A stretch of 64,000 nucleotides of DNA from an uncultured Actinomycetes bacterium (GCA_963718605.1 OY970363.1:192505-256504), one strand, 5' to 3'. Shown: positions 41,750 to 58,131, counted from the first letter of the stretch. Translations and numbers: made by a program. The notes: generated by a model from the sequence alone, not told the origin.

Positions 41750-42418
41750 TCACCGTCGGGACACTGAGACCCGGTACGGCGCGAGCCGCGTCCGCAGTTC
41801 ACGCCGTCCTCGGTTGGTGTCGAAGTCTGCGCTCGCGCCCGACGGAACTTGGGGGTCGTTCGAGGCGACGACCGCACCAACCGGGATCCGATCGCCGAAC
41901 AGAACCAGAGCAAGCAACGTCGGGTCTCGCTTACTTTGCCAGACGTATCCTTGCGCGGCTGGGGCGACGGACCTGATCCAGTGGCCCCAGTGACGCGATT
42001 GTGCGTAGTCACGCGGGTCGCACATGGTCAGCCACGTGTCCTGCGCGACTGCGCTGAGATCTAGCGCCGATCGAAGGGCGACCAACTCCAGGTCGTGCGT
42101 TACTGAAATCGAGCTGATCCGTCTGCCGGCAACCTTCGCTCGTGGTAGCAGGCGAAATCCCAAGTCGTCTGCGTCTAAGTCCCGCAGGAGAGTCTCCGCG
42201 ATCGCGACATCAACCGTCTGGCCGGCGTAAAGGAAGGGGTAGTCGTCGTCGTCAGTGCCATCAAAGCGTCCGCCGCCGTAGTACTTGTGGCTCGGTGTGG
42301 TGTTGAACGCGTCGCTCGCGAACCGTTTCTGATGAACTCGAAACAGGCTTGTCCCAGATAACAGAGTCGTTGTCCGCGCGACGCCGTTGAACGCCAACGG
42401 CGGTCGTGTGTTCGACAC
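41750..42418 (-). CDS. RES domain toxin (NAD+-targeting toxin family)
   Basis: 222 aa. The R/E/S triad context is GGGRFDG, VAIAETLLRD and YVWQSKRDP. GTG start lies 3 nt after the stop of the upstream DUF2384-like gene. Confidence 0.8.
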   Translation of the reverse strand: MSNTRPPLAFNGVARTTTLLSGTSLFRVHQKRFASDAFNTTPSHKYYGGGRFDGTDDDDYPFLYAGQTVDVAIAETLLRDLDADDLGFRLLPRAKVAGRRISSISVTHDLELVALRSALDLSAVAQDTWLTMCDPRDYAQSRHWGHWIRSVAPAAQGYVWQSKRDPTLLALVLFGDRIPVGAVVASNDPQVPSGASADFDTNRGRRELRTRLAPYRVSVSRR

Positions 42419-42421
42419 CGG

Positions 42422-43087
42422 TTACCAGCTGTCATTCGCGAGTTGGTCGACGGCAAACAAGAGTTCGTCGTCGCGGCCCGTGCCGAGGAGGTCAGCTGGC
42501 CTCGCCTTCGACAGCCACTGGTTTGGTGTGAGCCACCAACTCGCTGCACCTGCCGGGTCTTGGTAGCCGCCCAGCCGCTCGTGGAACCCTCGGACGATCT
42601 CGTGGATGGTGCCCGACTCGATCGACGAGAACATGAAGCGCGGCGTGCCGCCTTCCGCGTCGCTAATGAATGGTCGGGCCGTGATGCTCGGCGTTCCGTC
42701 CTGCGAGATGAAGAAAACGACTCCTTCGCGGCGAACCTGGGCTAGAGCCTCCTGCTCGACATAGTCCGCCACGGCACGCATCGTGACGTCAGGTTCGGCG
42801 AGCGCGACGAGAGAACGAACTACGCAGCGCTCGGCCAGGACCTGCGGTTCCAGGTGCAGACGGCGTTCCTCGAAGCGGGTGTCTGCGCTGCGAAGAACGA
42901 GCCACACTGCATGATCGGGTGGCAGGTCGGCCAGAAGTCGGGTTAAGACGGACTCAGCGAGCCCGTCCGAAGATGTCGGTTCTTCCCACTGGAGCCGCGC
43001 CAACGACGCGAGCGTTTGGACCGACAGCAACGGCTCTGTCTCTTCCCAGTCACGGTCGATCAGTTCGAGAGCATCGATAGTCGCCAT
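42422..43087 (-). CDS. RES-cognate antitoxin-like protein: unrecognised ~170-aa N-terminal region plus C-terminal DUF2384 (Xre/MbcA/ParS-type toxin-binding) domain
   Basis: The C-terminus WWLTPNQWLSKARPADLLGTGRDDELLFAVDQLANDSW matches the DUF2384 pattern. I could see no helix-turn-helix in the N-terminal part. ATG 43087 shares one base with the CHAT gene stop (TGATG). The 97-codon extension of ORF 42422..43378 lies inside the CHAT gene and was rejected. Confidence 0.65.
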   Translation of the reverse strand: MATIDALELIDRDWEETEPLLSVQTLASLARLQWEEPTSSDGLAESVLTRLLADLPPDHAVWLVLRSADTRFEERRLHLEPQVLAERCVVRSLVALAEPDVTMRAVADYVEQEALAQVRREGVVFFISQDGTPSITARPFISDAEGGTPRFMFSSIESGTIHEIVRGFHERLGGYQDPAGAASWWLTPNQWLSKARPADLLGTGRDDELLFAVDQLANDSW

Positions 43088-46000
43088 CAACCGGCAATGT
43101 AGACAACGCTCGACCAGTTGGCCGCGTGAGCGAACGGCCTGCGCCCCGTGTCTCGAAATTCCGGATCCAGTAGAAGCACACGGAGCTCTTGCCGAAGACG
43201 CGGCGGGATCCACGAGTCCAAGTCGTTCGCCGCGGCGAGGTCGAGGAAATCCGCGGCGCTGTATTCGCGAAGGGTCCGTTGGGCGTCGGCCAAGGCATCG
43301 GGTGCCTTCAGTCCAGCTACGAGGCGGTCGTAGAAGCGCGACATCAGCAGGCATGTGCCGGCGTCTTCGACGTCCCACAGTGTCGCTACGACGCTGCCTG
43401 CTCCGGCGGCAATCATCGTGTGCGCGAGACCGATCAGCTCATCCGCTCCCGCCTGATCAACCACCCCAGTGCTACAGCACGAGGCAACCACCATTGCCAG
43501 ATGCGGCATGGACGCCATGGCGAGGTCTTCGACGGTTACCCGCGTCTTGTCGCCGAGAATGAAGCGACTTGCGAACGGGTCGCCGGGGTCGTATCTGGCG
43601 TGACACGCGAGGTGTAGGTGCGTCGCTGTCGGGAGCTGCTCGAGCAACCAGCCCCGAAGACCGGCACCCTGGGGCGGCGTGACGACGCGTCCGGCGAATC
43701 GCTCGACGGCCACCAACTCGTCGGCTGCGAACCTCAGGTCGCCCGTCGGATTGACTATCGCCAAGGTGCGGTCTGGGTCGACGTTCCTTCGTGGGACAGC
43801 TGTGGCCGCCACGATGTACTGGGCGCTGGCGGCGACTTCAACCATGCCCGCGGACCCACCGAGAGCCGCAAGCGGAAGCCCAGACAAGGCTCCGCAGGCC
43901 ACGATCGCCACGCTGTCCACGGCTGCGTCGCGGAGAATGCGAGCCGCTTGGTTGAGGAGTCCGTCGCCTAGGACGTCCCAGGCCCGGTCCAGAGCCACCT
44001 CGACGTCTGCTCTCGATTGGGCCGTGTCAAGTGCAGCAAGCACCGAAGCGACGTCGCGTGACTTCACGAGTGCGGTCCACGCACCGGCTCCCTTTCCCGG
44101 AACCAGCACGACGGCATACGAGCCGAGTGAACACGTGCCGACGTACAGCATTGCCGTTCCAGCGCGGAGCCATCGTTGGACCGCTTCATCGACCTCGGTC
44201 GAGTCGTAGTCACCGACAGTTGTCCGCCGCCACCGTGCGCGTGAGCGTTCGATGGTGTGGATCACGCTTCGCGCATCGAGTCGATGCGCGTAGAGCAGCG
44301 CGAGCCGGTGATAGAGGTCACTCGCTGCAGCGACGTGGCCAAGGCGCGCGGCGAGCGTCGGAGCGCGGTCGATCACGTCGTCGGCATAGTCGCAGGCTGA
44401 GCGGAGAACCTCGACCGCAGCATCCCAGTTGCCACGCGACAGGTGCATCTGCGCAAGGTTGCCGCAGACGAGGTGGTGGAGGCGTGTAGGCGCTGAGTCC
44501 TCAAGCGCCGCCGCGCACTTACACAACAGCTCCTCCGCGCGATCGAGATCCGTATCTTCTCCTCGCCAAAACAACACTCCGGCCAGCGTCGTTGCCGCGA
44601 GTACGCGCGTCGCGTCGTCCGCTGCGAGATGGCGCGTCGAATCTACGGCGTCCTCCAGCCACTCCTCTGCGTCGGCGCATTGCGTCGCGCCGACGTTGGA
44701 CGTGACCCGGTGCAGCATCTCGAGGACAATCGCGCCGAGATTGACAAGCGCGCGCGTGCGCACGGGGTGGGTCGATTCGAGCTGGTCCAACTTCGGCCGC
44801 AAGGCATCAACCGCGTGGATTACAGCGTCGTCGTGCTCTGGCGAGAGGTCGAGCCGCGCACGGTCTGCGAGCGCTGAGACGAGGTTGCCTTCGAGCATTA
44901 TCGCGTCGGCTTGCGGGAGCGGATCCGACACGTCGAGACAGCGCGCGTAGTCGAAAAGCTCAAGCGCCTTCGCGACGTTCAGACTGGGATTACCGGCGAG
45001 CCGAGACCTCGACAACGCTGCCTGATTGACGATCGCCGAGATGCCCCGTGACGGCTCGTCCGGGAAATACAGCTGGCACAAATGAACGGCGTCATGAAGC
45101 AGCGACATCGCTGCCTCCGCAGCATCGGCGTCGGCGACTCGATCTGGTCGCAGTTCTGACAGCGCGAAGTTCACGGTGGCGTCGACAACGATCGGCAACT
45201 CGAGCCGGGCTGCGGTCCTTCGTACGTGATCGAGCATCGACCGCGCGTCGATAAACGCGTCCCCTGCGGTCATGTCGTCGAGAAGCCTCGCCGCCGTGTC
45301 GTTCATCGCCGTCAACGTCATCGGGTGAGCGTCGCCGAATTCGCGCGTCGCGAGCGCTATCAGTTCGCGACCGGAAGCGATGGCGGCGCGCAAGTCCGCC
45401 GGCGATCTCGAGGCTGCGGAACCAAGCGCAGTCAATTCGCGAAGCAGCGCCAGAGCTTCCTTCGCTGAGTCGGTCTCGGCATCGAACCCGAGTGCACGTA
45501 ACGAAGACTGGGCCGGACGACTCATGCGGGCCCGGACGACGTCGGCAGCAACCGGGTCGACCTGGGAGGCGGCGGTGAGAACACCGATCCGACGCACCAC
45601 CGGCTCCCACGACATCTGGGTGAGCTCAGGCTCGGACTCGATGACCCCCTCCGCGTCGGCATCGTCCGAAGCGACCAGTCTCCCGACAGCTGCCACTACG
45701 TCGGGCCACGGATGGTTCCAACGCATGGCCGCAACCCACTCGAGAACACGCGGGTCGTCGGCCCACTCCTGCCCGGCGGCGTCGACACCCGCGAGCTGGA
45801 AGCCCGAGTAACGGTCGGCCACGACGCCGACAAGCTCGGGCGACGTGTTCGCCACGGGGCCGGCGACGACGCCTGCGTCGTTGATCTGAGTTGCGAGCGC
45901 GTCCTCAAGGCGCGCCATCGTCTCGGAGTCAGCGGCCGACACGCAGAAGACGACCGGGATCGGATCTCCGGGGCGAAGGACTACGACGGGCCCGGGCACC

Positions 46001-46257
46001 GCCGCATCCTCGCCACAACTCGGGCAAGCAGCAACAGGAAAGGAAGCTCGCAGCGACTCCATCCGTTGCCGATCTCGCCAGTCCGACATCAGCGGCAGCA
46101 GATACGGAAAATTCGAGTCGCAGTGATCGCAGTGGACGATCAATTCGACATCCGTGGTGTCGAAGAGTTCGTCGCGATCGGTCGGACGGACGCCGGTACT
46201 CATTTCGCGATTGTCGCCGAGTCGCCAATGGACGCGTCGTTCAGAGAGTCGAACCAT
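43087..46257 (-). CDS. CHAT-domain (caspase-like) protease with N-terminal zinc-ribbon and helical TPR-like middle region
   Basis: 1056 aa. N-terminal HCDHCDS...ACPSCG (two CxxC pairs). A long all-helical middle region. C-terminal CHAT: LHLACHARYDP (catalytic His), AMVVASCCSTG (catalytic Cys), SVVATLWDV and the terminal HAANWSSVVYIAG. Confidence 0.8.
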   Translation of the reverse strand: MVRLSERRVHWRLGDNREMSTGVRPTDRDELFDTTDVELIVHCDHCDSNFPYLLPLMSDWRDRQRMESLRASFPVAACPSCGEDAAVPGPVVVLRPGDPIPVVFCVSAADSETMARLEDALATQINDAGVVAGPVANTSPELVGVVADRYSGFQLAGVDAAGQEWADDPRVLEWVAAMRWNHPWPDVVAAVGRLVASDDADAEGVIESEPELTQMSWEPVVRRIGVLTAASQVDPVAADVVRARMSRPAQSSLRALGFDAETDSAKEALALLRELTALGSAASRSPADLRAAIASGRELIALATREFGDAHPMTLTAMNDTAARLLDDMTAGDAFIDARSMLDHVRRTAARLELPIVVDATVNFALSELRPDRVADADAAEAAMSLLHDAVHLCQLYFPDEPSRGISAIVNQAALSRSRLAGNPSLNVAKALELFDYARCLDVSDPLPQADAIMLEGNLVSALADRARLDLSPEHDDAVIHAVDALRPKLDQLESTHPVRTRALVNLGAIVLEMLHRVTSNVGATQCADAEEWLEDAVDSTRHLAADDATRVLAATTLAGVLFWRGEDTDLDRAEELLCKCAAALEDSAPTRLHHLVCGNLAQMHLSRGNWDAAVEVLRSACDYADDVIDRAPTLAARLGHVAAASDLYHRLALLYAHRLDARSVIHTIERSRARWRRTTVGDYDSTEVDEAVQRWLRAGTAMLYVGTCSLGSYAVVLVPGKGAGAWTALVKSRDVASVLAALDTAQSRADVEVALDRAWDVLGDGLLNQAARILRDAAVDSVAIVACGALSGLPLAALGGSAGMVEVAASAQYIVAATAVPRRNVDPDRTLAIVNPTGDLRFAADELVAVERFAGRVVTPPQGAGLRGWLLEQLPTATHLHLACHARYDPGDPFASRFILGDKTRVTVEDLAMASMPHLAMVVASCCSTGVVDQAGADELIGLAHTMIAAGAGSVVATLWDVEDAGTCLLMSRFYDRLVAGLKAPDALADAQRTLREYSAADFLDLAAANDLDSWIPPRLRQELRVLLLDPEFRDTGRRPFAHAANWSSVVYIAG

Positions 46258-46303
46258 CGATTCGGCCTAGCCGAGCTTCGCCTCCGCGAAGTGGGTCGAA
46301 CGG

Positions 46304-47632
46304 TTAGCGACCTAACCGCTCGTGTTGGTCCGGTTCGCCGCGTAACGCCCACCGCGGCAGCGGCAGTTTCGTGTTGTCTGCTTCGAACCTCGTGAGCCCG
46401 AGGTCGTACATCAGGACGGTTAGCCAGTTCTGAACGATGGGTTCAATCGCGTCGACCGAGCTCCCCGCTGCCTCGCCTTGGAAGCCGTATTCCGATACGG
46501 CGTTCGCGATCACGTCTTGCGTGTATTTGTGCGCGTCGGCCAGCAAGCTGTTCAGCGCCTGAGCCGCGACGATCGAGACGGTTACTCCGTCGCGTGAGCG
46601 CGGTTCGGCCATCTCGAGAGCGGTCGCGCACGCAGCGAGCACGCGAGTTGCCGCGATGAGGCCTCCGAGCAACAGATCGCGAAGGTCGGCGATGATCAGC
46701 TTGAGGCGGGGGGTGTCGGCCGGCGGGTCGATTGGTTCGATCATCAGTTGGGTTGAGACTGAGAGCTCGCGGTGGTCGAGCACGACGCGGGACATTGCGC
46801 GGATTCGTGCGCCCAGCACGTTGTCGGTTTTCTGGGCTGCCGGTGACGTGGCGATGAGGCTTAGTTCGGTGGCTGACTGACGGAACACGTCCCAGTACGG
46901 CCCAAGGTCGCGGTATCGCCGTTGCGGCTCGAGAACCTTGTCGGGCAAGGGACTCGTATTGAGCGCTTCCTTCGCTGCTTCGGCGACCGCCGTGCCTAGC
47001 CATGGGTGGGTTAGGACGCGCACTGGTAGGTAGCTCGCTGCGCGGAAGCGGAGGTCGATCACCTCGTCGGCTTCCGGCTGGAGGCCCAAAGCCTGCTGCT
47101 TTAGCTGGGTCCACGAGTATGTGGGTGTTTGTGTGCCGGCACTGTGTCCGGCCTTGCCGCGTTCGACGAGGTTGATGATGTCTTCGCGCCGCGCGTGAGC
47201 GTTGTGGCCGGGCATCCGAATAAGGACGCGGCCGTTGACGGCAACAGGATGCGTGACGGCGTCTGCGTCGACGCGGAGAAGCAGGAGTATTCGGTCACCA
47301 ATGTCGGTGATGCGGACCGGAATGAATTCGGGCATCGCGTCTGTCGTGAGCACGCTGCGGAGCTGCTGTGCGATCGCGTCGTGATCGGCCGCCGGTATTC
47401 CGGGAAACCGATTCTCCGGGGGGCCTGTCTCGTCTGCGCCGACAATGACGATGCCGCCGTCGGCGTTGGCGAACGCGACAATGGAGTCAACGAGATGTTT
47501 CGACGCTGACTTCTTGAGTTCAAGAACGCGCGACTCGCTGAGGACTCCGAGGCGTTCGACGTTGGCGACATCCGCGACTAAGTCGTCGAACGAGATCTCG
47601 CTCGCCGCGCACCGGTAGATGTCGATCGCCAT
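46304..47632 (-). CDS. Schlafen/AlbA_2-domain protein with ~280-aa C-terminal region of unknown function
   Basis: ESRVLELKKSASKHLVDSIVAFANADGGIVIVGADETG...PVAVNGRVLIRMPGHNAHA fits the AlbA_2 (Schlafen core, putative nucleic-acid-binding) domain. ATG 47632; ORF-track start 47638 is a TTG two codons upstream. It sits 46 nt upstream of the CHAT gene on the same strand. Confidence 0.65.
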   Translation of the reverse strand: MAIDIYRCAASEISFDDLVADVANVERLGVLSESRVLELKKSASKHLVDSIVAFANADGGIVIVGADETGPPENRFPGIPAADHDAIAQQLRSVLTTDAMPEFIPVRITDIGDRILLLLRVDADAVTHPVAVNGRVLIRMPGHNAHARREDIINLVERGKAGHSAGTQTPTYSWTQLKQQALGLQPEADEVIDLRFRAASYLPVRVLTHPWLGTAVAEAAKEALNTSPLPDKVLEPQRRYRDLGPYWDVFRQSATELSLIATSPAAQKTDNVLGARIRAMSRVVLDHRELSVSTQLMIEPIDPPADTPRLKLIIADLRDLLLGGLIAATRVLAACATALEMAEPRSRDGVTVSIVAAQALNSLLADAHKYTQDVIANAVSEYGFQGEAAGSSVDAIEPIVQNWLTVLMYDLGLTRFEADNTKLPLPRWALRGEPDQHERLGR

Positions 47633-47936
47633 GATCAATCGTTAGCCGCTGCGTGGCGACGCCGCTGCGTGTTGCGACCTTCGATCTGTCGGCGCCGTCA
47701 GGATGCGGCATGCCTGCAGGTTTGCCCGGCCCGACCCGGGTACCGCTCGAATCGTCAAGTGGCACACCGCCGTTGCGGCAACGCGACTCGTCCGCGACGC
47801 ACACGCCGCGCTACTCGAAGGAGCGTTCACCGCCAACGAACGGGCTGCTCTCGACGCTGTCGCGGGGCGAAACGAGACGTAGAAGCGGCTCAAGCTCCTG
47901 CGTCACCACGCCCGCCGAAGTCAGTAGGTTCGAGTG

Positions 47937-49910
47937 ATGGGATCGGGAGCCAGTGATGCACCCGAACTTGTGGATGGGATGCCTCGAGAGGTCGTCGCCC
48001 AGATTCTGAAGGATCTCGACCGGGGACCGAAGATCATCGACTGCCTGCGGACCGCTGGTCATCTCATCGCAGAGGCGCGGGAGGACACGACGGGTCTTCG
48101 GCTGGTCGAGTCCGCCGCATACAACCTGCGCGAGGCGCTCGACGCGCTCGTCGTTGGTCAAGAAGCCGGCGAAAGCGCGCTGGACAAGTTCAGGGACGCG
48201 TACCGGCGGTACGGCGTCGCGTCGGCCGAACCGGGGGCCGACGAGGCGGCGGTGCTGAGGGCTCTCGCCACAGAGGTCGGCCGAGTGGCGACTGATACCA
48301 GCCACCAGGATTTCCGCACGCGGCAGTTCCTTGGCTGGCTGAAGTCCCGGACGGGGATTGCTCCCTTGCCGGGAGACGATGACCCGAGTGCGCAACTCGC
48401 GCGTCTTCGCAGACGAGTCAACGGTGCGCTACACGACAGCGGCACTCTCGCGAACGTCGCCGGGTTTTACGACGAAGGGACGTCGTGGTTCACCCGGCTG
48501 TTTACGCCTCCGGATGACCGAGTGCGACGGATCATCGAGCTCGCGCGCAACCCATTTGGCGAGGCGGCACAGGTGCAGGTTCTGCGCACCGAGATCGCTT
48601 ACAACGCTCACCACCTAGGCCGGTTTCTCGCCGAGGCGCGGGACCCGGCCTGGCTCGATGCATTGTTCGACGACGGGCTCATTCATCCGCCGCGCGACGA
48701 CGAACCTTGGCCGGTGGCGTCGTTGGTTGGCGGCAACGGTGGCATCGCTGCTTCTGACACGGTGGCGCTGCTGAGTCGGTTGCGGGCGTCGACGGCTGCT
48801 AGCGACGCGGCATCACTGTTGAGGTTGGACCGCAACCTCGTCCAGCTCGGCCTTCGATTGGGCGAGCCATCTCACGCGTTGGTCATCGATGTCGTGGCGA
48901 AGCACGGGAGTGACCACTGGATTCAACGACTCGCCGTGAACGTCGCCAGAGAGGCCGACCCCGCGTCGCCGGTCGTCGTCGCCGTGGCGGACGCCGTCAT
49001 CAACAGTCGCTCGACGTCGGACGCCGGATACCAGACCCGGACGATGACCGATCTGCTCATCGGCGGGATTAATACTGACAACGCGCGGGAGCGGTTCGCG
49101 TTGTTGGCGTCGAAGCTTGAACGATTGGCGACGCACGCCAGCCTTCGCGTGTCGCCACCGGACATCGCCGCCCTCAACACTCCGGACGCCGATGGAGATC
49201 TTCGCGACGAGCCGCTTATCGTGACCGAACGCTTCGTGAACGCCATTGGGCGGTGGCGGGAGCTGGGGTTGCCGACATCGGAGCTCGTGGCATTGGTTGA
49301 GCCGATTGGCGGGCAGCTCGGCGAGCGCATCCTGTGCAGAGTTTTGGTCGGCGCCGAGGACGTGACCAGGAAGTCAAAGCTCGCTCACCTGGCTCTGCGA
49401 TTGCACTCACCAACGGCTTCGGGCGACGACCGTGACCTGCTCGCAGACTTAGGACAGTTAACCGACGTCGAGATCGCGGAACTTGCAATCGCGTTCGGTG
49501 CGCCGTCCGAGGCACCGGAGTCCGATGGAAACGGAATGGTGACCCTGCCCGCCGATTGGGCTCGGGCCTGGCGCTGGTCGATGCTGCTTCCCCCGGCCGT
49601 GCTGGACTCGTGGACAGCCGCGATCGAGGCCGTTATCGGGCGACATGGCCCCCCCGATCCCGAAGCGTTCAGCGCGTCGGCTTCCGAGGCATTTCTCGGT
49701 GCCGTCCAATCCGCCGCACACTTCAGAGGAGCTCTCCGCGGTCTCTCCAATAGATGCTGCCGAATTGGTGGCGGCGTGGCGTCCCACACCCGACATGGGT
49801 CTGTGGGGCTCAAGCCTCTACGAGCTCGCCGTCGAAATCGAGAGCGCGATCAGTGGAGACATCGACGCATGGGTGGCGGACCCGGTCGCGATCGTCACGG
49901 CGCTGCGTGA
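47937..49910 (+). CDS. large hypothetical helical protein, N-terminal segment (probably the first part of a frameshifted ~1075-aa gene)
   Basis: Coding-looking sequence up to about ...GPPDPEAFSASASEAFLGAVQS (~49710). The last ~65 codons (RGALRGLSNRCCRIGGGVASHTRH...RRRNRERDQWRHRR) look like out-of-frame translation. I recognised no NTPase or nuclease motifs. Confidence 0.55.
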   Translation: MGSGASDAPELVDGMPREVVAQILKDLDRGPKIIDCLRTAGHLIAEAREDTTGLRLVESAAYNLREALDALVVGQEAGESALDKFRDAYRRYGVASAEPGADEAAVLRALATEVGRVATDTSHQDFRTRQFLGWLKSRTGIAPLPGDDDPSAQLARLRRRVNGALHDSGTLANVAGFYDEGTSWFTRLFTPPDDRVRRIIELARNPFGEAAQVQVLRTEIAYNAHHLGRFLAEARDPAWLDALFDDGLIHPPRDDEPWPVASLVGGNGGIAASDTVALLSRLRASTAASDAASLLRLDRNLVQLGLRLGEPSHALVIDVVAKHGSDHWIQRLAVNVAREADPASPVVVAVADAVINSRSTSDAGYQTRTMTDLLIGGINTDNARERFALLASKLERLATHASLRVSPPDIAALNTPDADGDLRDEPLIVTERFVNAIGRWRELGLPTSELVALVEPIGGQLGERILCRVLVGAEDVTRKSKLAHLALRLHSPTASGDDRDLLADLGQLTDVEIAELAIAFGAPSEAPESDGNGMVTLPADWARAWRWSMLLPPAVLDSWTAAIEAVIGRHGPPDPEAFSASASEAFLGAVQSAAHFRGALRGLSNRCCRIGGGVASHTRHGSVGLKPLRARRRNRERDQWRHRRMGGGPGRDRHGAA

Positions 49911-51168
49911 ACCGGCCTACATCCAGCGGTACCTCCGGGTCCTTCAGAAACACGCGAAAGAGTTGACCAGCTTGGCGGGACCGATCTTGGACGCCGTCGC
50001 GCTCGTCAACAGCAAGCCGTGGATCCCCGCCGAAATCACCAGCGACGTCAACCCGGAAACTGCATGGTTCGACCTCGAGCGGCCAATCGTTGACCTGATC
50101 GCAGCGTTCGCAAACGCTGAGGCGGACTTCGGTGAGCACCGCGACTTGATGTGGCGGATAACCGCGCAACTCGTACGGGCCGTACCGACCGACCTGCCAC
50201 CCCTAGACGAACCTACGGATCGCGAGGCTCACAACGATGCGTACGGCCGCGCAATCAACACGACGTACGGCAAGGCACTGGAAGCCGCCGTTTCCGTCGG
50301 CTGGCTCGACCATCGCCGCGACGGAACGACTCCGCAGGAGTTCGTCGATCTCCTCGACTTTGCAATAACGGTGCCGGGCGCGGTTGGTGCGGAGTTGCGC
50401 TCGATCCTCGCTGTCTCCCGGCCGGTACTGGAGTACTCCGCCGCTGACTGGTTGGACCGTTGCCACGAAGAACTCTTCGGCGGCGAACTCGGCCAAGTCA
50501 CCTTCGAAGCGACGCTGAAGTATCCGCGTCCCACAACCTGGCTCTACGAGAACTACCGGACCCGCATCGCGGCGGCCGCCCTCGACAAGGTTCCTAGCGC
50601 CGTCGCACTGCCATTGATCGGATACCTGTGGGATCTCGAAAAGTTCACCATCGCGAGCGTCCTCGGTGGCTACCACAGCAACGTCGACGTCCTCCGCGAA
50701 ACCGCCGAAGAAATCGCATCGTTGGTATCGGACGCAGAGGCCGACGAACCGATGCTGAACCATGCGCTGAAGTTCTGGGACGGCATGCTCGACGGCGCTG
50801 GTTCGACGGTGCCCAAAGCAGCGCTGGCGGGTGCCGGCCGATGGGTCTACGTAGACAAAGTCAACGACGAGGAGCTACTGCCGAGGCTGGAACGAACGGT
50901 GCTGCACACCGGTGGAGTCATCGACTTCGAAACCGAGGTCGCTGACCGATGCCGTGATGCACAACCCAACGCCACAGCGCTTCGAATTCTCCGACTCATT
51001 CAGGGCCACGGCGACCCGTGGGAACGCGACCACGTAGGAGACATCGCGATCGAGGCGTTGGTTGCCGCGGCAGGACACGACACAGGCCCGGAGTTCAACG
51101 AACTGCGAGATCGTCTACTCGAACTCGGCTATCACGCCGCCGCCGATATTGAACCGGGGCACATCTAG
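49699..51168 (+). CDS. large hypothetical helical protein, C-terminal segment (frame +1 relative to 47937..49910)
   Basis: ORF track gives 49645..51168. Its first ~18 codons look non-coding. Protein-like sequence begins near GVPSNPPHTSEELSAVSPIDAAELVAAW (GTG at 49699). No recognisable domain. Confidence 0.55.
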   Translation: MPSNPPHTSEELSAVSPIDAAELVAAWRPTPDMGLWGSSLYELAVEIESAISGDIDAWVADPVAIVTALREPAYIQRYLRVLQKHAKELTSLAGPILDAVALVNSKPWIPAEITSDVNPETAWFDLERPIVDLIAAFANAEADFGEHRDLMWRITAQLVRAVPTDLPPLDEPTDREAHNDAYGRAINTTYGKALEAAVSVGWLDHRRDGTTPQEFVDLLDFAITVPGAVGAELRSILAVSRPVLEYSAADWLDRCHEELFGGELGQVTFEATLKYPRPTTWLYENYRTRIAAAALDKVPSAVALPLIGYLWDLEKFTIASVLGGYHSNVDVLRETAEEIASLVSDAEADEPMLNHALKFWDGMLDGAGSTVPKAALAGAGRWVYVDKVNDEELLPRLERTVLHTGGVIDFETEVADRCRDAQPNATALRILRLIQGHGDPWERDHVGDIAIEALVAAAGHDTGPEFNELRDRLLELGYHAAADIEPGHI

Positions 51169-51524: not shown

Positions 51525-53093
51525 CTACGTCACTAGGAGTTCGGCGTCGACGCGGAGATCTCCGTACCGAATCCGGTGCCACTCGGTGCCGCAAAACTCG
51601 ACTGGGGGGGTTGGCGGCGATTCGAGGAGGTGGACGAGCTCGCGGACCGTCGCACCTTTCCGCAATGTCCTGGACAACAGCTGATGCGATCGCAGAAAGA
51701 CTTCGTTCTTATCGATGTCGCGCGTAGCGAGGACATCGCGGGTTAGCACGAACCAACGACGGTCGAAGTCACTGACGTCGGGCCAGTCAGCCGGCCATCT
51801 GACCGCGGCATCGCCACCGTCGACTTCGCGGCGGAGGCGCTCGACTTGCTTTCGCTTTTCGATCGCCTGCCCCTCCGTCCTGTAGACCTCGGCGTTTCCG
51901 TCGGCGGCGATGTGCCACTTGATCTCGAAGATGGCGATCAACTTGTCGCGTGGGTCGCAGACGACCACGTCCAGGTCCCCGGCGGCGTCGCCGTTGCACC
52001 GGGCCACCCTTACCCGACTCGCGACAAGGGTCCCTTTGGCCATCCGATCGAACGTTTTTCGCGTCGCGTGTTCGCCAGCGATGCCCAGGAGCTGTCCGGC
52101 CTCACCGAACATGCTGGGGTCAGGCTGCACAATGGCGAGCGTGTTGCGGTGTGGGGCGCCCGGCAGGATCAACGAGCTCATCGGCATCAGCGCACGTCCC
52201 AGAGGGGCAAGCGGGGTCAGGGCGGCGTCCGCGCACCTAGAGACGTCGATCGTATGGAGCGTCGTAATTCGATCGACCGCTCCTAGATCGATGTTCGCGC
52301 TGTCAGCGACATCCTCAATGAATCGTTCGCGGTCGACGACAGGAACGATCGTCGGCGGATGCACCGAGCCAGCCGTAATCGCGGCATTCATCTGCATTCC
52401 CCGTGCCATGAGCTCCTGCCAATAGGCGTCGAGCTGCGCGACGGTAAAGCCCGCCACCGACGCACTCGGCGGTAAATACTTCGGGTAGGTCTCGAGCACG
52501 TCTGCGGACACGGTGCGATACAGATCCTGCACCCACGCGGGCGTCTGATCCCAGGGTGTGGTCAGACCGTCGGTGCCAATCCAGTCGGCAAGCCTCGGGT
52601 CACGTTGACGTCGCGGAGGTGCGAGGGATCCGAGGTTCTCGACGAGATCGAGCATTCGGTCGAGAGCATCGACCTCGTGGTTTCCACGGTATGGGAGCCT
52701 TACAAGGGTCCCCTCGGACTCAAAACCACGAAGGCCGACGCGCACCTCGACTAGCAAGTTTCGTAGCGCCCAATATCGCTCGGTCAGCGTCCACATTGCC
52801 CCGCGATCCTGCTCGGACGATGCTCGTCTCGGAGCCGGGCCGGCCATGTACTGCGTCACCCAGCCAGCGCCGATCCCCACCTTGTTGTGGTGGGCAGCCG
52901 TGGACGTTGCGACGGCCGCGTGTGGTCCGATCTCGGCCGAGAGTTTCCGCAGTTCCGCCACGGGCTGCACGTTCAGCCAAGCCAGTGTCGGAAAAACGGC
53001 GGCATCCCCATCACGCCAGCAAGCGAGTCGCAACGGACGACCTTCCACGTACGTAGCGAAGCCCTCGAGGTCGAGGGATCGCGGCTTGCCCAT
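51525..53093 (-). CDS. hypothetical protein with C-terminal NERD/PD-(D/E)xK nuclease-like domain
   Basis: 522 aa starting at ATG 53093. C-terminal GIAGEHATRKTF...AAGDLDVVVCDPRDKLIAIFEIKWH fits the G-x-x-G-E ... D ... E-x-K pattern of NERD/restriction-endonuclease-fold proteins. The N-terminal ~380 aa are unrecognised. Confidence 0.5.
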   Translation of the reverse strand: MGKPRSLDLEGFATYVEGRPLRLACWRDGDAAVFPTLAWLNVQPVAELRKLSAEIGPHAAVATSTAAHHNKVGIGAGWVTQYMAGPAPRRASSEQDRGAMWTLTERYWALRNLLVEVRVGLRGFESEGTLVRLPYRGNHEVDALDRMLDLVENLGSLAPPRRQRDPRLADWIGTDGLTTPWDQTPAWVQDLYRTVSADVLETYPKYLPPSASVAGFTVAQLDAYWQELMARGMQMNAAITAGSVHPPTIVPVVDRERFIEDVADSANIDLGAVDRITTLHTIDVSRCADAALTPLAPLGRALMPMSSLILPGAPHRNTLAIVQPDPSMFGEAGQLLGIAGEHATRKTFDRMAKGTLVASRVRVARCNGDAAGDLDVVVCDPRDKLIAIFEIKWHIAADGNAEVYRTEGQAIEKRKQVERLRREVDGGDAAVRWPADWPDVSDFDRRWFVLTRDVLATRDIDKNEVFLRSHQLLSRTLRKGATVRELVHLLESPPTPPVEFCGTEWHRIRYGDLRVDAELLVT

Positions 53094-53366: not shown

Positions 53367-55169
53367 GTGGCTGACGTCGAACCCGTGGATGCCGAACCTG
53401 ATGACGTCGCGCCCGAAGTGGACCCGTCCGCACCGCTCTACATTGAGCGCGTCAGCGTCCGAAATTTTCGCGGTCTCGCGGCGTGCGAGCTTGAACTCGA
53501 ACCTCAGCTCACATTGCTCGTCGGACGCAACAATTCCGGGAAGTCACGCATTCTGCGTGCCATCGCGATCGCGTTTGCTGGAGTTGCGGCCGAACTCGAC
53601 GACCTGACTGTCGGGTCCGACGATCCGGCAGTCGTTGACGTCGTCGTGGGTCCCCGTCCTCCCGAGGCCGAAGCGGACGAGGACGTCTTCAGCGGGCCAG
53701 TCGGAATTCGACTCGGCCCAGGTGCGGTACAGACCGTCCGAGAGGAACCGCTTCGCGAACGATTTGCTTGGCGGACGACCGTTCGTCGATCGGCCGAAGG
53801 CTTGGGCGCTCGGACCGAGGCACATGTTCTTGTCTTCGACGCGGCTGATTCTCAATGGGTGCAACCTGGCGGAGCCGCGATGGTGTCGCGCGACCAGCGC
53901 TCCCTTCTTGCGGTTGACCTAATTGAAGCGCGCCGAGACGTCGTCGAGGAACTGACGCGACGAGGATCGGCGATCAGACGCGTTCTGAGCGACCTCGAAG
54001 TTGATGTCGTGAAGCGCGCCGAGCTCGAGGAGCAGTTAGCGGCACTTGGAGCGGAAATAGTCGCCAATAGCGCGACTCTCGACTCGATCCGTGGTGCGCT
54101 CGAAGAGCTCGAAGAAGTGGTCGGCACGGTCGGGAAGCCCGCGCTCAGTCCGCTGCCCGTTCGGCTGGAGGAACTCGCGCGCTCGGTGTCGATCGATCTC
54201 GACACTGGATCGGGTGGTCTGCCCATGCGGCTTCACGGCCTGGGATCGAGGAGCCTCTCGTCCCTTCAGATGCAGGGTGTCATGTACAACCGCCGGCTCG
54301 GAGTCGACGGCCCGGCTCTTCGCCCCCACCCGCTGACGCTGATCGAGGAGCCGGAGGCGCACCTGCACCCCCAGGCGAGCATCGAGTTGGCAGGCCTTCT
54401 GACCGGCATCCGGGGACAGGTGGTGGCCACGACGCATTCACCGCAGGTTGTGACCGCAGTCGAGGCAAGGTGTCTGCGCGTAATCCGCGAGGACGCGGGA
54501 GTGACGAAGGTTTTTGACCTCGGCCCGACGGACGACATGTCGGTTCACCGACACTTGCGACCGTGCCTTCACGCGGAGGAAATGGAGAAGCTCCGGCGGT
54601 TGGTAGAACGGCCGTTCGGCGAAGTGCTGTTCGCAAGCGTGGTTGTTATGGGCGATGGCGCGACTGAGCGATCGTTTCTTCCGATCGTCCTGCGCCATGC
54701 GGTGGGATCGAAGGCTCACGGCGTGTGCGTGATCGACCCAGGCAGCCTTGGCGGTGCGCTCGCTCCCGCCGTAGTGAAGTTCGCGAACCTCGTCGACGCT
54801 CCTTGGTTCATATTCAGCGACACCGATGATCAAGGACAGAAGGCTGCGAACAAGCTGGTAGACGACTTCGCGGGCGGCGATGCATCTCACATCGTGTGGG
54901 TTGACGAGGCCGGTGCGCTGGCCGACCCGGCGGGAGACGGTGCGATTGAGCGCCTCATGGCGAGTTTCGACGACCAAATGTGCATCGACGCCTGTGTCGA
55001 GATGCGGCCGGACGCGGACCAAACCAAATCGGCTCTGGATCTGTTGAAGGACGCGAAGGGCTCCGTTGGAGCAACGTTGGCGCGGCGTTTTGTTCAGAAG
55101 TACCCGAACGTCGATGACTGGCCCGAATGCCTTCGTACACTTGTCGAGCGGCTCAACGACGCCGTCTGA
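53367..55169 (+). CDS. gajA: OLD-family ATP-dependent nuclease (ABC-type ATPase + Toprim), GajA-like
   Basis: IERVSVRNFRGL...LLVGRNNSGKS (Walker A), LTLIEEPEAHLHP (Walker B region), VVMGDGATERSFLP and FIFSDTDDQG (Toprim Glu and DxD). It is followed directly by a UvrD-like helicase. Start is uncertain: GTG 53367 or GTG 53418. Confidence 0.7.
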   Translation: MADVEPVDAEPDDVAPEVDPSAPLYIERVSVRNFRGLAACELELEPQLTLLVGRNNSGKSRILRAIAIAFAGVAAELDDLTVGSDDPAVVDVVVGPRPPEAEADEDVFSGPVGIRLGPGAVQTVREEPLRERFAWRTTVRRSAEGLGARTEAHVLVFDAADSQWVQPGGAAMVSRDQRSLLAVDLIEARRDVVEELTRRGSAIRRVLSDLEVDVVKRAELEEQLAALGAEIVANSATLDSIRGALEELEEVVGTVGKPALSPLPVRLEELARSVSIDLDTGSGGLPMRLHGLGSRSLSSLQMQGVMYNRRLGVDGPALRPHPLTLIEEPEAHLHPQASIELAGLLTGIRGQVVATTHSPQVVTAVEARCLRVIREDAGVTKVFDLGPTDDMSVHRHLRPCLHAEEMEKLRRLVERPFGEVLFASVVVMGDGATERSFLPIVLRHAVGSKAHGVCVIDPGSLGGALAPAVVKFANLVDAPWFIFSDTDDQGQKAANKLVDDFAGGDASHIVWVDEAGALADPAGDGAIERLMASFDDQMCIDACVEMRPDADQTKSALDLLKDAKGSVGATLARRFVQKYPNVDDWPECLRTLVERLNDAV

Positions 55170-55182
55170 GTTGGAGTTCCTC

Positions 55183-57000
55183 ATGGAAGGCGTTCGATCC
55201 GTGTACACACTCAGCGACGAGCAACAGGCGGCGGTCGACTGCGATGACGCTGCAATCGTCGTTGTCGCGAGTGCAGGAAGCGGCAAAACGGAAGTCGTCG
55301 CGCGTCGGGTGGAACGGCTGCTAACGAGTTCGGCCGGGGATTCGTCGCGAGTCTTGGCTCTCTCGTACACGATCAAAGCGGCAGACGAGTTGCGCGACCG
55401 ATTCCGCGAACGGTTGGGCGACCTTCACCGTCGTGTCGACACGGACACCGTGCACGGATTTGCTCACTCGCTTCTGCGACAAGGCGGAACGCGCATCGGA
55501 CTGCCCGTCGAGCCGGAAGTTCTAAGTCGGGACGCGGACCGGGTCGAGCTTCTGGGTCGTTGGCTCGCCGCAGAGGGCGCGAGGGTGCCCGACGATCTCG
55601 CCGCGGCGCTGGGGGCGCTTGACCTCAGTCGGGCGCGCCTACAAGAGGCGCCGTTGGGGGTCGAGTGGGATGCGGCGTTGCGCGATGCAGGAGCAGTCGA
55701 CTACCCGGCGATGCTCGAACGTGCGAACGAGCTACTCGGCCTCGCATCGACCCGCCGCCAGCTCTCGCGCCTGTACAGCCACGTGATCGTTGACGAGGCG
55801 CAGAACCTCACTCCTGCGCAGTATGCATTGCTCACAGCTGTCATCGGCCTTCCCGGCGACGACCAAATTCCAGCGATGATTGTCGGCGATGACAAACAAT
55901 CGATTGTCAGTTTCGCTGGCGCTGATCCAGCGCTGATCCGGCAGTTCGCCAAGGACTACCGAGCAACGCGATTCGAACTAACGAAGAATTTCCGTTCCGC
56001 GGCAGCCATCGCGACCGTTGGGCAATCCGTCGCGAAAGCGCTCGGTCAGCGCGGCGAGGTCGAGCCGGCCGACAGCTTCGCTGCGCCTGGCGTTGTACTT
56101 ACCTACGAAGCCGACGATGAGACTGACGAAGCAGCACGAGTTACGGCGTGGATCGTTGATCTCCTCCGAGACGGACTGCCAAAGGATGTTGTCGCGGCCG
56201 GTGAGTCAACGACCGTTCGACCTGAGGACATCGCGGTTCTTGCGCGATCCGCCGCCGCCCTTCGCTACACACGGGCGGCTCTTGAGGCCGCTGGGATCCA
56301 GGCCGCGTCCGCCAGCGCTCCTGAGGATTGGCTTGCTACGACGGCGGCCGACGTGATTGTTGAACTGATCGCGCTCCAAAGTTCCGCAGACCACAAGTCA
56401 ACCCACTGGCAGCTCGCGCGATTGCTGGACGCGGACGAGGACGACGTACGTGACCCCGCAGCGCTGAAACAGACGCTTGCAGGTAACGCCGATGAGGGCC
56501 TTCGTGCGATCGCGAGTCTCTGCGATGCGGAGCAGCCGTCGGACCTCGTGGCAGCGCTCGCCTCCATCGAACTGTCGGCGGATACCACCTCGCCCCTGTC
56601 GGTCGCGTGGCACTCCGACTGCGCTCTCATCGGCGAGTCATGGCTTGCATTCACGGCCCAGGCCTCGGCAGCGGAGTGGACCTGGGGAAACTTCGGCCTG
56701 TATCTCTCACGAATACAGCGCGGCACCACGGGCGGGTCTGGCGTCAAACTCATGACGATTCACAAAGCCCAGGGCCAAGAGTTCCCGGTTGTCGCTTTGA
56801 TCGGTCTGAACGACGGCCAGCTTCCTGACTTCCGTGCAAACGACGAAGCGAGCCAACTCGCCGAGTTACGAACGTTCTACGTCGCGGTCAGCCGCGCTAG
56901 CCGGGCGCTCTTGGTCACTCGGCCACGGTTCCGAGACACGCGCTTCGGCCCACGGGGCTCCCGGGAGTCCGCGTATTGGGAGTTCCTCGTCGCGAGCTGA
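55183..57000 (+). CDS. gajB: UvrD/PcrA-like superfamily 1 helicase, GajB-like
   Basis: VVASAGSGKTEV (motif I), HVIVDEAQNL (motif II), KNFRS and MTIHKAQGQEFPVV. Start set to ATG 55183, 13 nt after the gajA stop with GGAG upstream. The ORF-track start 55066 lies inside gajA. Confidence 0.75.
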   Translation: MEGVRSVYTLSDEQQAAVDCDDAAIVVVASAGSGKTEVVARRVERLLTSSAGDSSRVLALSYTIKAADELRDRFRERLGDLHRRVDTDTVHGFAHSLLRQGGTRIGLPVEPEVLSRDADRVELLGRWLAAEGARVPDDLAAALGALDLSRARLQEAPLGVEWDAALRDAGAVDYPAMLERANELLGLASTRRQLSRLYSHVIVDEAQNLTPAQYALLTAVIGLPGDDQIPAMIVGDDKQSIVSFAGADPALIRQFAKDYRATRFELTKNFRSAAAIATVGQSVAKALGQRGEVEPADSFAAPGVVLTYEADDETDEAARVTAWIVDLLRDGLPKDVVAAGESTTVRPEDIAVLARSAAALRYTRAALEAAGIQAASASAPEDWLATTAADVIVELIALQSSADHKSTHWQLARLLDADEDDVRDPAALKQTLAGNADEGLRAIASLCDAEQPSDLVAALASIELSADTTSPLSVAWHSDCALIGESWLAFTAQASAAEWTWGNFGLYLSRIQRGTTGGSGVKLMTIHKAQGQEFPVVALIGLNDGQLPDFRANDEASQLAELRTFYVAVSRASRALLVTRPRFRDTRFGPRGSRESAYWEFLVAS

Positions 57001-57190: not shown

Positions 57191-57388
57191 ATGAGCATCT
57201 CGGACCTGATCAACAAAACCCTCAAGAAAGCGAATGTCGAATCGATACTCGGTGATCTCGGTGTGATGCAGATCGCGGGGGCGATTTCCAGCGGCGCCTC
57301 TGAGGCCGAAATCTTGGCCATCGAGGCTGGGCTGGTGGAAGCGACCGACAACACGCCTCAGGCCACGGATCTGGTCGAAAAGCCGTGA
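57191..57388 (+). CDS. small hypothetical protein (65 aa)
   Basis: GGAGG at 57178-57182, 8 nt before the ATG. Its stop overlaps the GTG of the CHAP gene (GTGA). No recognisable domain. Confidence 0.5.
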   Translation: MSISDLINKTLKKANVESILGDLGVMQIAGAISSGASEAEILAIEAGLVEATDNTPQATDLVEKP

Positions 57389-58131
57389 CAACGGTCGCGG
57401 AAGCGCTGGCTCAGGCGGCGCACTGGGACGGCTACGTGGAGGAGCCGCCGGGGTCAAACAACACAGAGTTCGGCCGTTGGTACGGCGTGAACCCCGACTA
57501 TTGGTGTGCAATGTATGTATCGCGCGTGTTCTTCGATGCTGGGCTTCCGTTGCCGGCGTCGACGTCTAAGGGCTTCGCGTACACCCCACAGGGCGCCAAA
57601 TGGTTTATGGACAACCAACGATTCGTTGGGCCGTCAGCGCCGATCGCTCCTGGGATGGTGGTCTTCTACTACTACCCGAGCAAGAAGCGGATCGCTCACG
57701 TCGGCATCGTTGCCGACGTGATTGACAGTCAGCACTTTCACGCGTGGGAGGGCAACACCGATGCGGCCGGAGGTCGAACGGGCGGGCGCGTGATCAAGCA
57801 GACACGATCTCGTTCGACAGTCGGCGCGCACGGCGGGTTCGGCATACCGGCGCTGTCCGACTTGGTGTATCCGCCAGCGGATCAACAGGAGCCGACGCCT
57901 GCGACGGCTCCGCCGTACCCAGGCCGGGTGTTGAAGCTCACAAACCCGATGATGCGTGGTGAGGACGTCAAAAACTGGCAAGGCCGCATGGCCCAGATTG
58001 GATACAGGATCTCTAGTGACGGTGTCTACGGACGCGGTTCGGAAGGCGTCTGCAAGGAATTCCAACGCATGAAGGGACTCGGCGCAGACGGCCAGGTCGG
58101 ACCGAAGACGTGGAAAGCGAGTTGGGCGTAG
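57385..58131 (+). CDS. CHAP-domain peptidoglycan hydrolase with C-terminal peptidoglycan-binding (PG_binding_1) domain, endolysin-like
   Basis: GSNNTEFGRWYGVNPDYWCAMYVS (catalytic Cys context), IAHVGIVADV and HAWEGNT (His/polar residues of CHAP). C-terminal DGVYGRGSEGVCKEFQRMKGLGADGQVGPKTW is the PG-binding repeat. No signal peptide seen. Confidence 0.75.
   Translation: MTTVAEALAQAAHWDGYVEEPPGSNNTEFGRWYGVNPDYWCAMYVSRVFFDAGLPLPASTSKGFAYTPQGAKWFMDNQRFVGPSAPIAPGMVVFYYYPSKKRIAHVGIVADVIDSQHFHAWEGNTDAAGGRTGGRVIKQTRSRSTVGAHGGFGIPALSDLVYPPADQQEPTPATAPPYPGRVLKLTNPMMRGEDVKNWQGRMAQIGYRISSDGVYGRGSEGVCKEFQRMKGLGADGQVGPKTWKASWA

Follow-up and report, generated by a model that had tools for sequence, protein, structure and literature searches.

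The DNA considered here is a stretch of 64,000 nucleotides from an uncultured Actinomycetes bacterium (GCA_963718605.1 OY970363.1:192505-256504), referred to below as the window, and our subject is a group of four minus-strand genes in it that encode, in the order of their transcription, a protein with an AlbA_2 domain, a TPR-CHAT protease, an antitoxin-like protein that we call AT, and a RES toxin. The last three form a CHAT-AT-RES module that recurs in many actinobacterial genomes, and we think that it may be a toxin-antitoxin (TA) system whose toxin is released by its own protease. Open reading frames (ORFs) were translated and scanned with the Pfam, NCBIfam and PADLOC 2.0 profiles, and AlphaFold (AF2) models were compared with the PDB by Foldseek. 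The AlbA_2 gene (46304..47632 or 46304..47638, 442 or 444 aa; Pfam SLFN_AlbA_2 8e-9, residues 35-148) stops 46 nt before the ATG of the CHAT gene (43087..46257, 1056 aa; Pfam CHAT 1.7e-30). The stop TGA of the latter (43089-43087) and the start ATG of the AT gene (43087-43085) are fused in a TGATG, with base 43087 common to both, and the AT gene (42422..43087, 221 aa) ends in a TAA (42424-42422) that is followed after 3 nt by the GTG start, at 42418, of the RES gene (41750..42418, 222 aa; Pfam RES 5.5e-20). These junctions were read from the raw sequence, and all four ORFs carry a coding-type signature, with more G+C at third than at second codon positions (GC3 > GC2). A first-pass annotation of this DNA had described the same tight, co-oriented arrangement and the same three domain families, and in both respects it was right. 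An AT frame opening at GTG 43378 (318 aa) was ruled out, because all homologues keep an N-terminus of the form MA(I/V)xDAL, which places the start at ATG 43087.

The RES protein carries the putative catalytic residues R51, E75 and S162, invariant in 30 of 30 family members, and its homologues (44-67% identity) occur in 40+ loci; scans of viral contigs for RES found none. It is too divergent to match any solved RES toxin by sequence. Two further features run through the family: a C-terminus of the form V(A/S)(L/V)(S/A)RR in all members (region 41750-41760 of the window) and an invariant RHWGHW motif, and so far as checked no description of either was found for characterised RES toxins.

The gene that precedes RES is less easily classified. 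AT has no above-threshold family: it matches Pfam Xre_MbcA_ParS_C (PF09722, a DUF2384 family) with E 0.019 and 15.4 bits against a cut-off of 24.5, NCBIfam Xre_ParS is likewise sub-threshold (E 0.015), and weak PF09722 matches recur in 6 of 15 members of the AT family, the best at 0.0021. Searching PDB sequences with the RES and AT profiles gave spurious matches only (antibodies, ATP synthase), so that a search by fold was required for AT. Its AF2 model, built on a 19-sequence alignment (predicted local distance difference test, pLDDT, 79), has a confident, all-helical N-domain (residues 1-120) with an exposed coil loop at residues 68-80 (42848..42886), then a β-hairpin, a low-confidence segment (137-155) that holds an invariant P149-x-F151-x-F153, and a C-terminal helical domain (residues ~158-218, 42434..42616). 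The top Foldseek match is MbcA (6fkg_C, probability 0.98, root-mean-square deviation 2.7 Å over 62 columns); the other compact matches, VPA0769 and the P. putida Xre, also fall on the C-terminal domain, and all three have poor E-values (0.7-8). The DUF2384 C-terminus that had been claimed for this protein is therefore not borne out by the profile, which stays below its cut-off, and probably holds when the family and fold evidence is included. The N-terminal domain gave no structural match in the PDB, no helix-turn-helix (HTH) family was matched by AT at E <= 10, and no HTH-bearing structure was retrieved with the modelled N-domain; the description of an atypical antitoxin that lacks the HTH thus stands, with a helical N-terminal region of ~150 residues in its place. 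Taking the model and the profiles together, AT is probably a RES antitoxin in which the toxin-binding domain is a divergent form of the DUF2384 kind and an HTH cannot be detected. It lies directly upstream of RES in every AT locus inspected. Word-indexed searches, with 3 and 19 matches, had made the AT family look extremely rare, a view overturned when HMMER was run exhaustively with the AT profile and returned 1326 clusters at 50% identity, 739 of them at 1e-10; the best matches are nearly all ~210-250 aa long and are matched along their full length. Gene context was inspected for a handful of these 1326 clusters.

The CHAT protein is of quite another rarity, with five close homologues and one distant among 5.8 billion proteins. 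Its CHAT domain (residues 760-1053, 43099..43980) keeps the catalytic dyad intact in conserved motifs, His886 (43600-43602) in LHLACHA and Cys928 (43474-43476) in ASCCSTG, as had been read from the translation at first sight, and both residues are kept in the homologues P0001, P0002, P0004 and P0006. In the AF2 model (pLDDT 74), about 600 residues of paired helices precede the α/β CHAT domain, and Foldseek returns DdvA, the TPR-CHAT protein Csx29 and separase, at E 5e-11 to 1e-8; model and fold search thus agree with the Csx29-like TPR-CHAT architecture first proposed. The putative N-terminal Zn-ribbon (CxxC...CxxC, residues 41-82, 46012..46137) fared less uniformly: the pattern is there and its Cys pairs are conserved in the homologues, the profile match is a weak one to CpXC (E 0.0085), and the region is poorly resolved, at low confidence, in the model. 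Besides the Zn-ribbon and the TPR-like repeats, no nucleotide-sensor domain (SAVED, CARF, Macro) is recognised in the window protein.

The association of these three genes is conserved. AT-RES, or the part of it that can be seen, follows CHAT directly in six of the seven loci with close CHAT homologues (45-51% identity). In L004 both genes are present after CHAT, in L003 as well, with frameshifts, and in L001 the contig stops within AT; scans with the RES alignment brought in L009 (Blastococcus capsensis), where CHAT and AT again overlap by 1 nt, and L036 and L037, in which the C-terminus of CHAT lies directly upstream of AT. The single exception, L002, lacks AT-RES, and in its CHAT protein (P0003) an Asn stands in place of the catalytic His; this gene (L002:786-4924) is oriented divergently to an adjoining SEFIR/TIR_2 gene. 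A distant full-length homologue (24% identity; L006:298-6565) is followed by a 96-aa ORF, Cap15_CD_rec and DACNG/DACNH, genes which suggest swappable effector cassettes. In more remote AT-RES loci, the adjoining CHAT proteins are unrelated to that of the window except in the CHAT domain. In L007/L026, a 1349-aa protein that has only the CHAT domain in common with that of the window (31% over 214 aa) is followed by an 83-aa ORF, AT and RES. When four distant AT members were looked up, three proved to be linked to CHAT: L041 (Streptomyces), with overlapping CHAT (1313 aa), AT and RES genes, and L043 (Kitasatospora) and L045 (Streptomyces), in which a ~360-aa protein is followed by AT-RES-CHAT and a convergent Peptidase_C14 gene. 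The fourth, L046, has no CHAT. The S. clavuligerus plasmid pSCL4 has the same AT-RES-CHAT arrangement as L043 and L045, under generic gene names from the Prokaryotic Genome Annotation Pipeline (PGAP). CHAT and AT overlap at stop and start, or are separated by 6 nt or less, in the window and in L001, L003, L004, L009, L036, L037 and L041.

In a neighbour-joining tree of RES, the window-type loci linked to CHAT group together and those of the L007 type are placed among loci without CHAT, a position that points to more than one event of association between CHAT and AT-RES. Judged by these gene neighbourhoods, AT-RES is an autonomous core that has become coupled to CHAT in two gene orders and across five or more divergent lineages, beyond what chance would produce. 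The chance juxtaposition that the first-pass annotation had allowed for is thus not what the CHAT homologues show, and we think it very likely that CHAT, AT and RES are functionally linked.

The same cannot be said of the AlbA_2 gene. The earlier proposal was a four-gene system, in which AlbA_2 would act as a nucleic-acid sensor that feeds CHAT, and CHAT would cleave the antitoxin. The domain is genuine, the gene is co-oriented with CHAT at 46 nt, and a promoter and terminator scan, uninformative overall, showed no terminator between them; the two genes may be co-transcribed. Against this, the related CHAT/AT/RES loci for which upstream sequence is available (L001, L003, L005, L007, L009, L041, L043, L045 and L048) all lack a nearby AlbA_2 homologue, the homologues found on Streptomyces plasmids are isolated genes annotated as 'ATP-binding protein', and PADLOC offers no match. 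Since its relatives stand alone and the related loci do without it, AlbA_2 is probably a neighbouring independent gene and no member of the conserved module; the four-gene system was rejected on these grounds, and a working chain from AlbA_2 to CHAT seems to us very improbable. Scans of viral contigs for AlbA_2 found none.

A possible point of contact between protease and antitoxin is found in the exposed AT loop, which follows a conserved 'HP.W.AL' helix and contains, in every CHAT-linked AT, an Arg with a bulky hydrophobic residue after it. The window has T70-R71-F72, its close relatives TRFxPG, L007 RFDPG, L041 RRY, L043 ARY and L045 ARL. Arg-[F/Y/L] is thus present in 5/5 CHAT-linked lineages vs 1/10 unlinked ones (Fisher p = 0.002, with kinship ignored), and pSCL4, outside this count, makes a sixth linked lineage with the motif (ARF). 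The single unlinked lineage that has it, L016 (RMRY), carries a fragment of a CHAT gene 9 kb upstream; in that locus, AT is also translationally coupled to a 289-aa protein (L016:8444-9313) that is HTH-like at its N-terminus and has transmembrane segments at its C-terminus, and no CHAT adjoins it. Bacterial caspase-like proteases with a strict requirement for Arg at P1 have been documented in type IV Thoeris (10.1101/2024.10.24.620036). We regard the loop motif as a candidate site, a lead rather than a proof of CHAT cleavage. The idea that a cut after R71 would create an N-degron, by exposing Phe to ClpS, was set aside as a side note; Phe follows the Arg in the window's clade alone, and other lineages have Y, L or A.

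From the gene structure, domains, folds, linkage and motif correlation described so far, we infer the following order of events. RES, whose R-E-S triad is intact, would be a toxin that uses NAD+, kept inactive by the binding of the MbcA/ParS-type C-terminal domain of AT. In AT, the DNA-binding HTH would have given way to the helical domain with its exposed Arg71-Phe72 loop. The TPR-CHAT protease would lie dormant until its helical-repeat region senses a trigger, presumably one of phage origin; it would then cut AT, most likely in the loop and probably between R71 and F72, and the cut antitoxin would be destabilised, which would free RES and lead to arrest or death of the cell. CHAT-AT-RES would thus be a three-gene, protease-gated RES toxin-antitoxin module that serves as an abortive-infection or stress switch, a reading to which we give a probability of about 0.45. 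Protease-activated effector modules are a common design in defence (PMC12642450).

Several findings weigh against this reading. CHAT homologues exist without AT-RES (L002) or with other genes downstream (L006). The pair itself, full-length and with its N-domain, is found without a nearby CHAT in at least nine loci (L010, L011, L012, L014, L015, L017, L029, L046 and L050), so that AT-RES is autonomous and CHAT is dispensable for the pair; the view that so atypical an antitoxin is tied to CHAT has to be given up, the AT family being large. The neighbours of the stand-alone pairs (L010-L019, L028/29, L031, L050) are unrelated genes, such as an ammonium transporter, a FAD oxidase and an MFS transporter. 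As for the loop, R-[FYLWM] occurs within a 21-residue loop window in 94 of 165 AT representatives whose gene context is not known, and the motif is short and loosely defined, with a residue after Arg that varies between lineages. The wide occurrence of AT-RES alone, and of CHAT without it, would also suit a selfish or addiction-type AT-RES that stabilises, or hitch-hikes with, a Borvo-like single-gene CHAT to which it has no biochemical coupling; the similarity of the window protein to BovA, weak and restricted to the CHAT domain, points the same way, and TA modules and defence genes generally cluster in islands. We consider such an independence of the neighbours rather unlikely, because the adjacency is shared by five or more divergent lineages, in two gene orders and with CHAT N-termini that are not homologous, because CHAT and AT overlap or lie no more than 6 nt apart in eight loci including the window, and because the loop motif correlates with the presence of CHAT.

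Other partners of AT-RES should be described before the direction of the coupling is discussed. A protein of ~360 aa, in which a Macro domain scores close to the threshold (22.3 bits in L046 against a cut-off of 22), is found beside or near many AT-RES loci, with or without CHAT: at L043:5916-7001, L045:5890-7038, L046:6657-7847(-), L029:8708-9808(-) and L048:6152-7294, and also at L012, L014, L015/L031 and L041. The window holds no homologue of it. Because this protein recurs near AT-RES in related loci, the chemistry of the RES family is suggested to be of the ADP-ribosyl kind rather than a simple destruction of NAD+. A Peptidase_C14/caspase gene convergent on CHAT is present at L043:12168-14105(-), L045:12616-14592(-) and L048:11699-13567(-), and the combination of Peptidase_C14 with CHAT in the loci of Streptomyces, Kitasatospora and S. 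clavuligerus pSCL4 recalls the cascade from SAVED-CHAT to PCaspase.

With such partners, the wiring might be thought to run in reverse: AT-RES would be the sensor and signal generator, and a product made by RES from NAD+ would activate CHAT (and Peptidase_C14 in Streptomyces), which would then degrade cell proteins. This would fit a widespread AT-RES core to which CHAT is an add-on, it would give a role to the caspase gene that converges on CHAT in Streptomyces and Kitasatospora in the manner of SAVED-CHAT and PCaspase, and the recurrent Macro-domain protein could degrade a signal derived from ADP-ribose. It also mirrors type IV Thoeris, in which TIR makes N7-cyclic ADP-ribose (N7-cADPR), an NAD+-derived signal that activates a caspase-like protease (10.1101/2024.10.24.620036). 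Nevertheless we judge it unlikely for the window, whose CHAT protein has no recognisable nucleotide-sensor domain and has instead a Zn-ribbon and repeats of the TPR-like kind, for which proteins are the typical ligands; moreover, characterised RES toxins arrest growth by themselves (PMC12457610), and an AT loop motif that correlates with CHAT would be left unexplained.

In some loci the AT N-domain is replaced by something very different. The C-terminal region of AT, comprising 'P.FQF' and the DUF2384-like part, is fused in frame to an EF-Tu paralogue directly upstream of RES (L013:3458-5059; L033:6212-7996, identical with L032; L034:~104-706). In these fusions NAEHKRAA or GHTAHSRT stands in place of the P-loop GHVDHGKT, and the DxxG motif is lost. 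EF-Tu is cleaved by defence caspases and by Lit, and the fusion looks like an EF-Tu decoy antitoxin as far as its degenerate motifs indicate. A wider interpretation would then regard the AT N-domain as a swappable 'bait', represented in the window by a helical domain that CHAT can cleave and in Brachybacterium and related loci by a decoy that is a degenerate EF-Tu, and the window as the founding case of a dedicated, operon-encoded protease-gated TA system, widespread in Actinomycetota including pSCL4, and the bacterial counterpart of caspase/ICAD/CAD. We hold this interpretation only tentatively and with more doubt than confidence.

If the bait idea is true, RES toxins would serve as general executioners, connected in each case to a different sensor of infection. 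It has long been asked by what means type II toxins are set free when a phage infects the cell, and the usual answer, an unspecific decay of the antitoxin by housekeeping proteases of the Lon type, is contested; a dedicated caspase-like protease that bears its own sensor would offer a clean and testable mechanism of release, and it would join the field of RES and NAD+ toxins to that of caspase-like immune proteases. Independently of this, RES antitoxins without an HTH constitute a large uncharacterised family with varying N-terminal domains, of which the CHAT-associated helical one and the pseudo-EF-Tu are two. A modular design of bait and toxin is suggested, and it could be explored in Streptomyces.

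The surroundings of the locus are those of a defence island next to a biosynthetic cluster. A minus-strand cluster of non-ribosomal peptide synthetase (NRPS) genes occupies 6.4-36 kb of the window; its proteins of 5957, 2120 and 910 aa (6472-36000, - strand) have repeated C-A-PCP modules, one of them ends in a sulfotransferase domain, and the giant genes account for the strong GC and AT skew over the same interval, in which the antisense strand shows spurious repeated ORFs of equal lengths. A thioesterase and two ABC exporters (36.2-41.4 kb) separate this cluster from RES. On the other side, ~6 kb from the CHAT-AT-RES locus, a Gabija pair lies at 53367-57000, consisting of GajA (53367-55169; PADLOC PDLC00067, 5.8e-74) and an overlapping ORF for a UvrD-type helicase (55066-57000; UvrD-helicase 2.1e-39), so that the Gabija neighbour noted at first is genuine, and with it the defence-type location. 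The locus and Gabija thus belong to one small defence island. Between the two lie three sizeable ORFs, 47934-49910(+), 49645-51168(+) and 51525-53093(-), that have a coding GC3 signature and for which none of Pfam, NCBIfam and PADLOC gives a family match; these too may serve in defence, as genes of kinds not yet characterised. The label 'NERD-like' given to the third finds no backing in those profiles, and by eye a PD-(D/E)xK-like 'D...E.K' motif can be seen at its end. Just past Gabija, 57385-58131(+) encodes a CHAP + PG_binding_1 protein, an endolysin-like cell-wall hydrolase. In B. capsensis (L009:10710-16000), the trio is followed by a fragment of a GajA-like ATPase, an insertion sequence (rve integrase) and a UvrD-like helicase, which amounts to a disrupted Gabija-like pair and echoes the surroundings of the module in the window. 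By these contexts the module may have a role in defence against phages.

The novelty claimed for the system at the outset is upheld within the sources consulted. PADLOC 2.0 recognised no named system in the four proteins, its sole match being a weak one of the CHAT domain to BovA, and no system that combines CHAT or a caspase with RES, DUF2384 or an antitoxin was described in the open-access literature searched. Partial likenesses can be drawn with several known systems. Borvo shares a CHAT-domain protein and a defence context, but the rest of its protein is unrelated and the window has dedicated partner genes; membership was rejected, as the BovA match (E 1.5e-5) covers residues 878-1000 only and not the full length. 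The RES-Xre type II systems (MbcTA, ParST, P. putida RES-Xre, NatRT, VPA0770-0769) have in common with the window a RES toxin with the R-E-S triad and an antitoxin immediately upstream (3 nt) whose C-terminus probably has, judged by the model, the MbcA/ParS toxin-binding fold. They differ in that the window antitoxin is about twice as long and carries a helical domain of ~150 residues instead of the Xre HTH, a feature that was looked for and not found, so that it was not counted as canonical RES-Xre; moreover, the locus adds a translationally coupled protease, and related loci add Macro and caspase partners. In the tripartite toxin-antitoxin-chaperone (TAC) systems a third operon-encoded protein likewise controls the stability of the antitoxin, as is proposed here, but there a SecB-like chaperone protects it, whereas the CHAT protease would destroy it.

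On the protease side, a similar architecture is that of Craspase, in which Csx29, together with Cas7-11, cleaves Csx30. TPR-like repeats and a C-terminal CHAT domain are common to both (Foldseek E ~1e-10), and in both a protease cuts, or here would cut, a dedicated partner to unleash a response; the window protein has in addition an N-terminal Zn-ribbon, and its presumed substrate is a toxin inhibitor and not a sigma-factor regulator. It is no member of the Csx29 family by NCBIfam NF041237 (23 bits against a cut-off of 300), and the neighbours scanned contain no Cas7-11, Csx30/31, CRISPR context or Cas family. Type IV Thoeris and the type III-B cascade from SAVED-CHAT to PCaspase also tie NAD+-using enzymes or CHAT to Arg-specific caspase-like proteolysis (10.1101/2024.10.24.620036), and Streptomyces relatives of our module pair CHAT with Peptidase_C14, but the window locus has no TIR, SAVED, CRISPR or C14 gene.

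A likeness in general design exists with the modules of protease and effector (gasdermin-protease, and those that pair MBL, α/β-hydrolase, Pepco or EACC1 with a trypsin- or caspase-like protease) described in PMC12642450, where a latent, sensor-fused protease stands beside a death effector. Two features expected of such modules are found here, an intact H886/C928 dyad and a coupling of protease to effector in at least five lineages and two orders, and the swappable effector cassettes have a parallel in the genes downstream of CHAT in L006. The lists of protease-associated effectors that were consulted include neither RES nor antitoxin modules. In the modules described there the protease cleaves the zymogen of the effector, whereas here the presumed target is the inhibitor in a two-protein complex, and in this respect the window resembles the eukaryotic system of caspase-3, ICAD and CAD, in which an inhibitor is likewise what the protease attacks.

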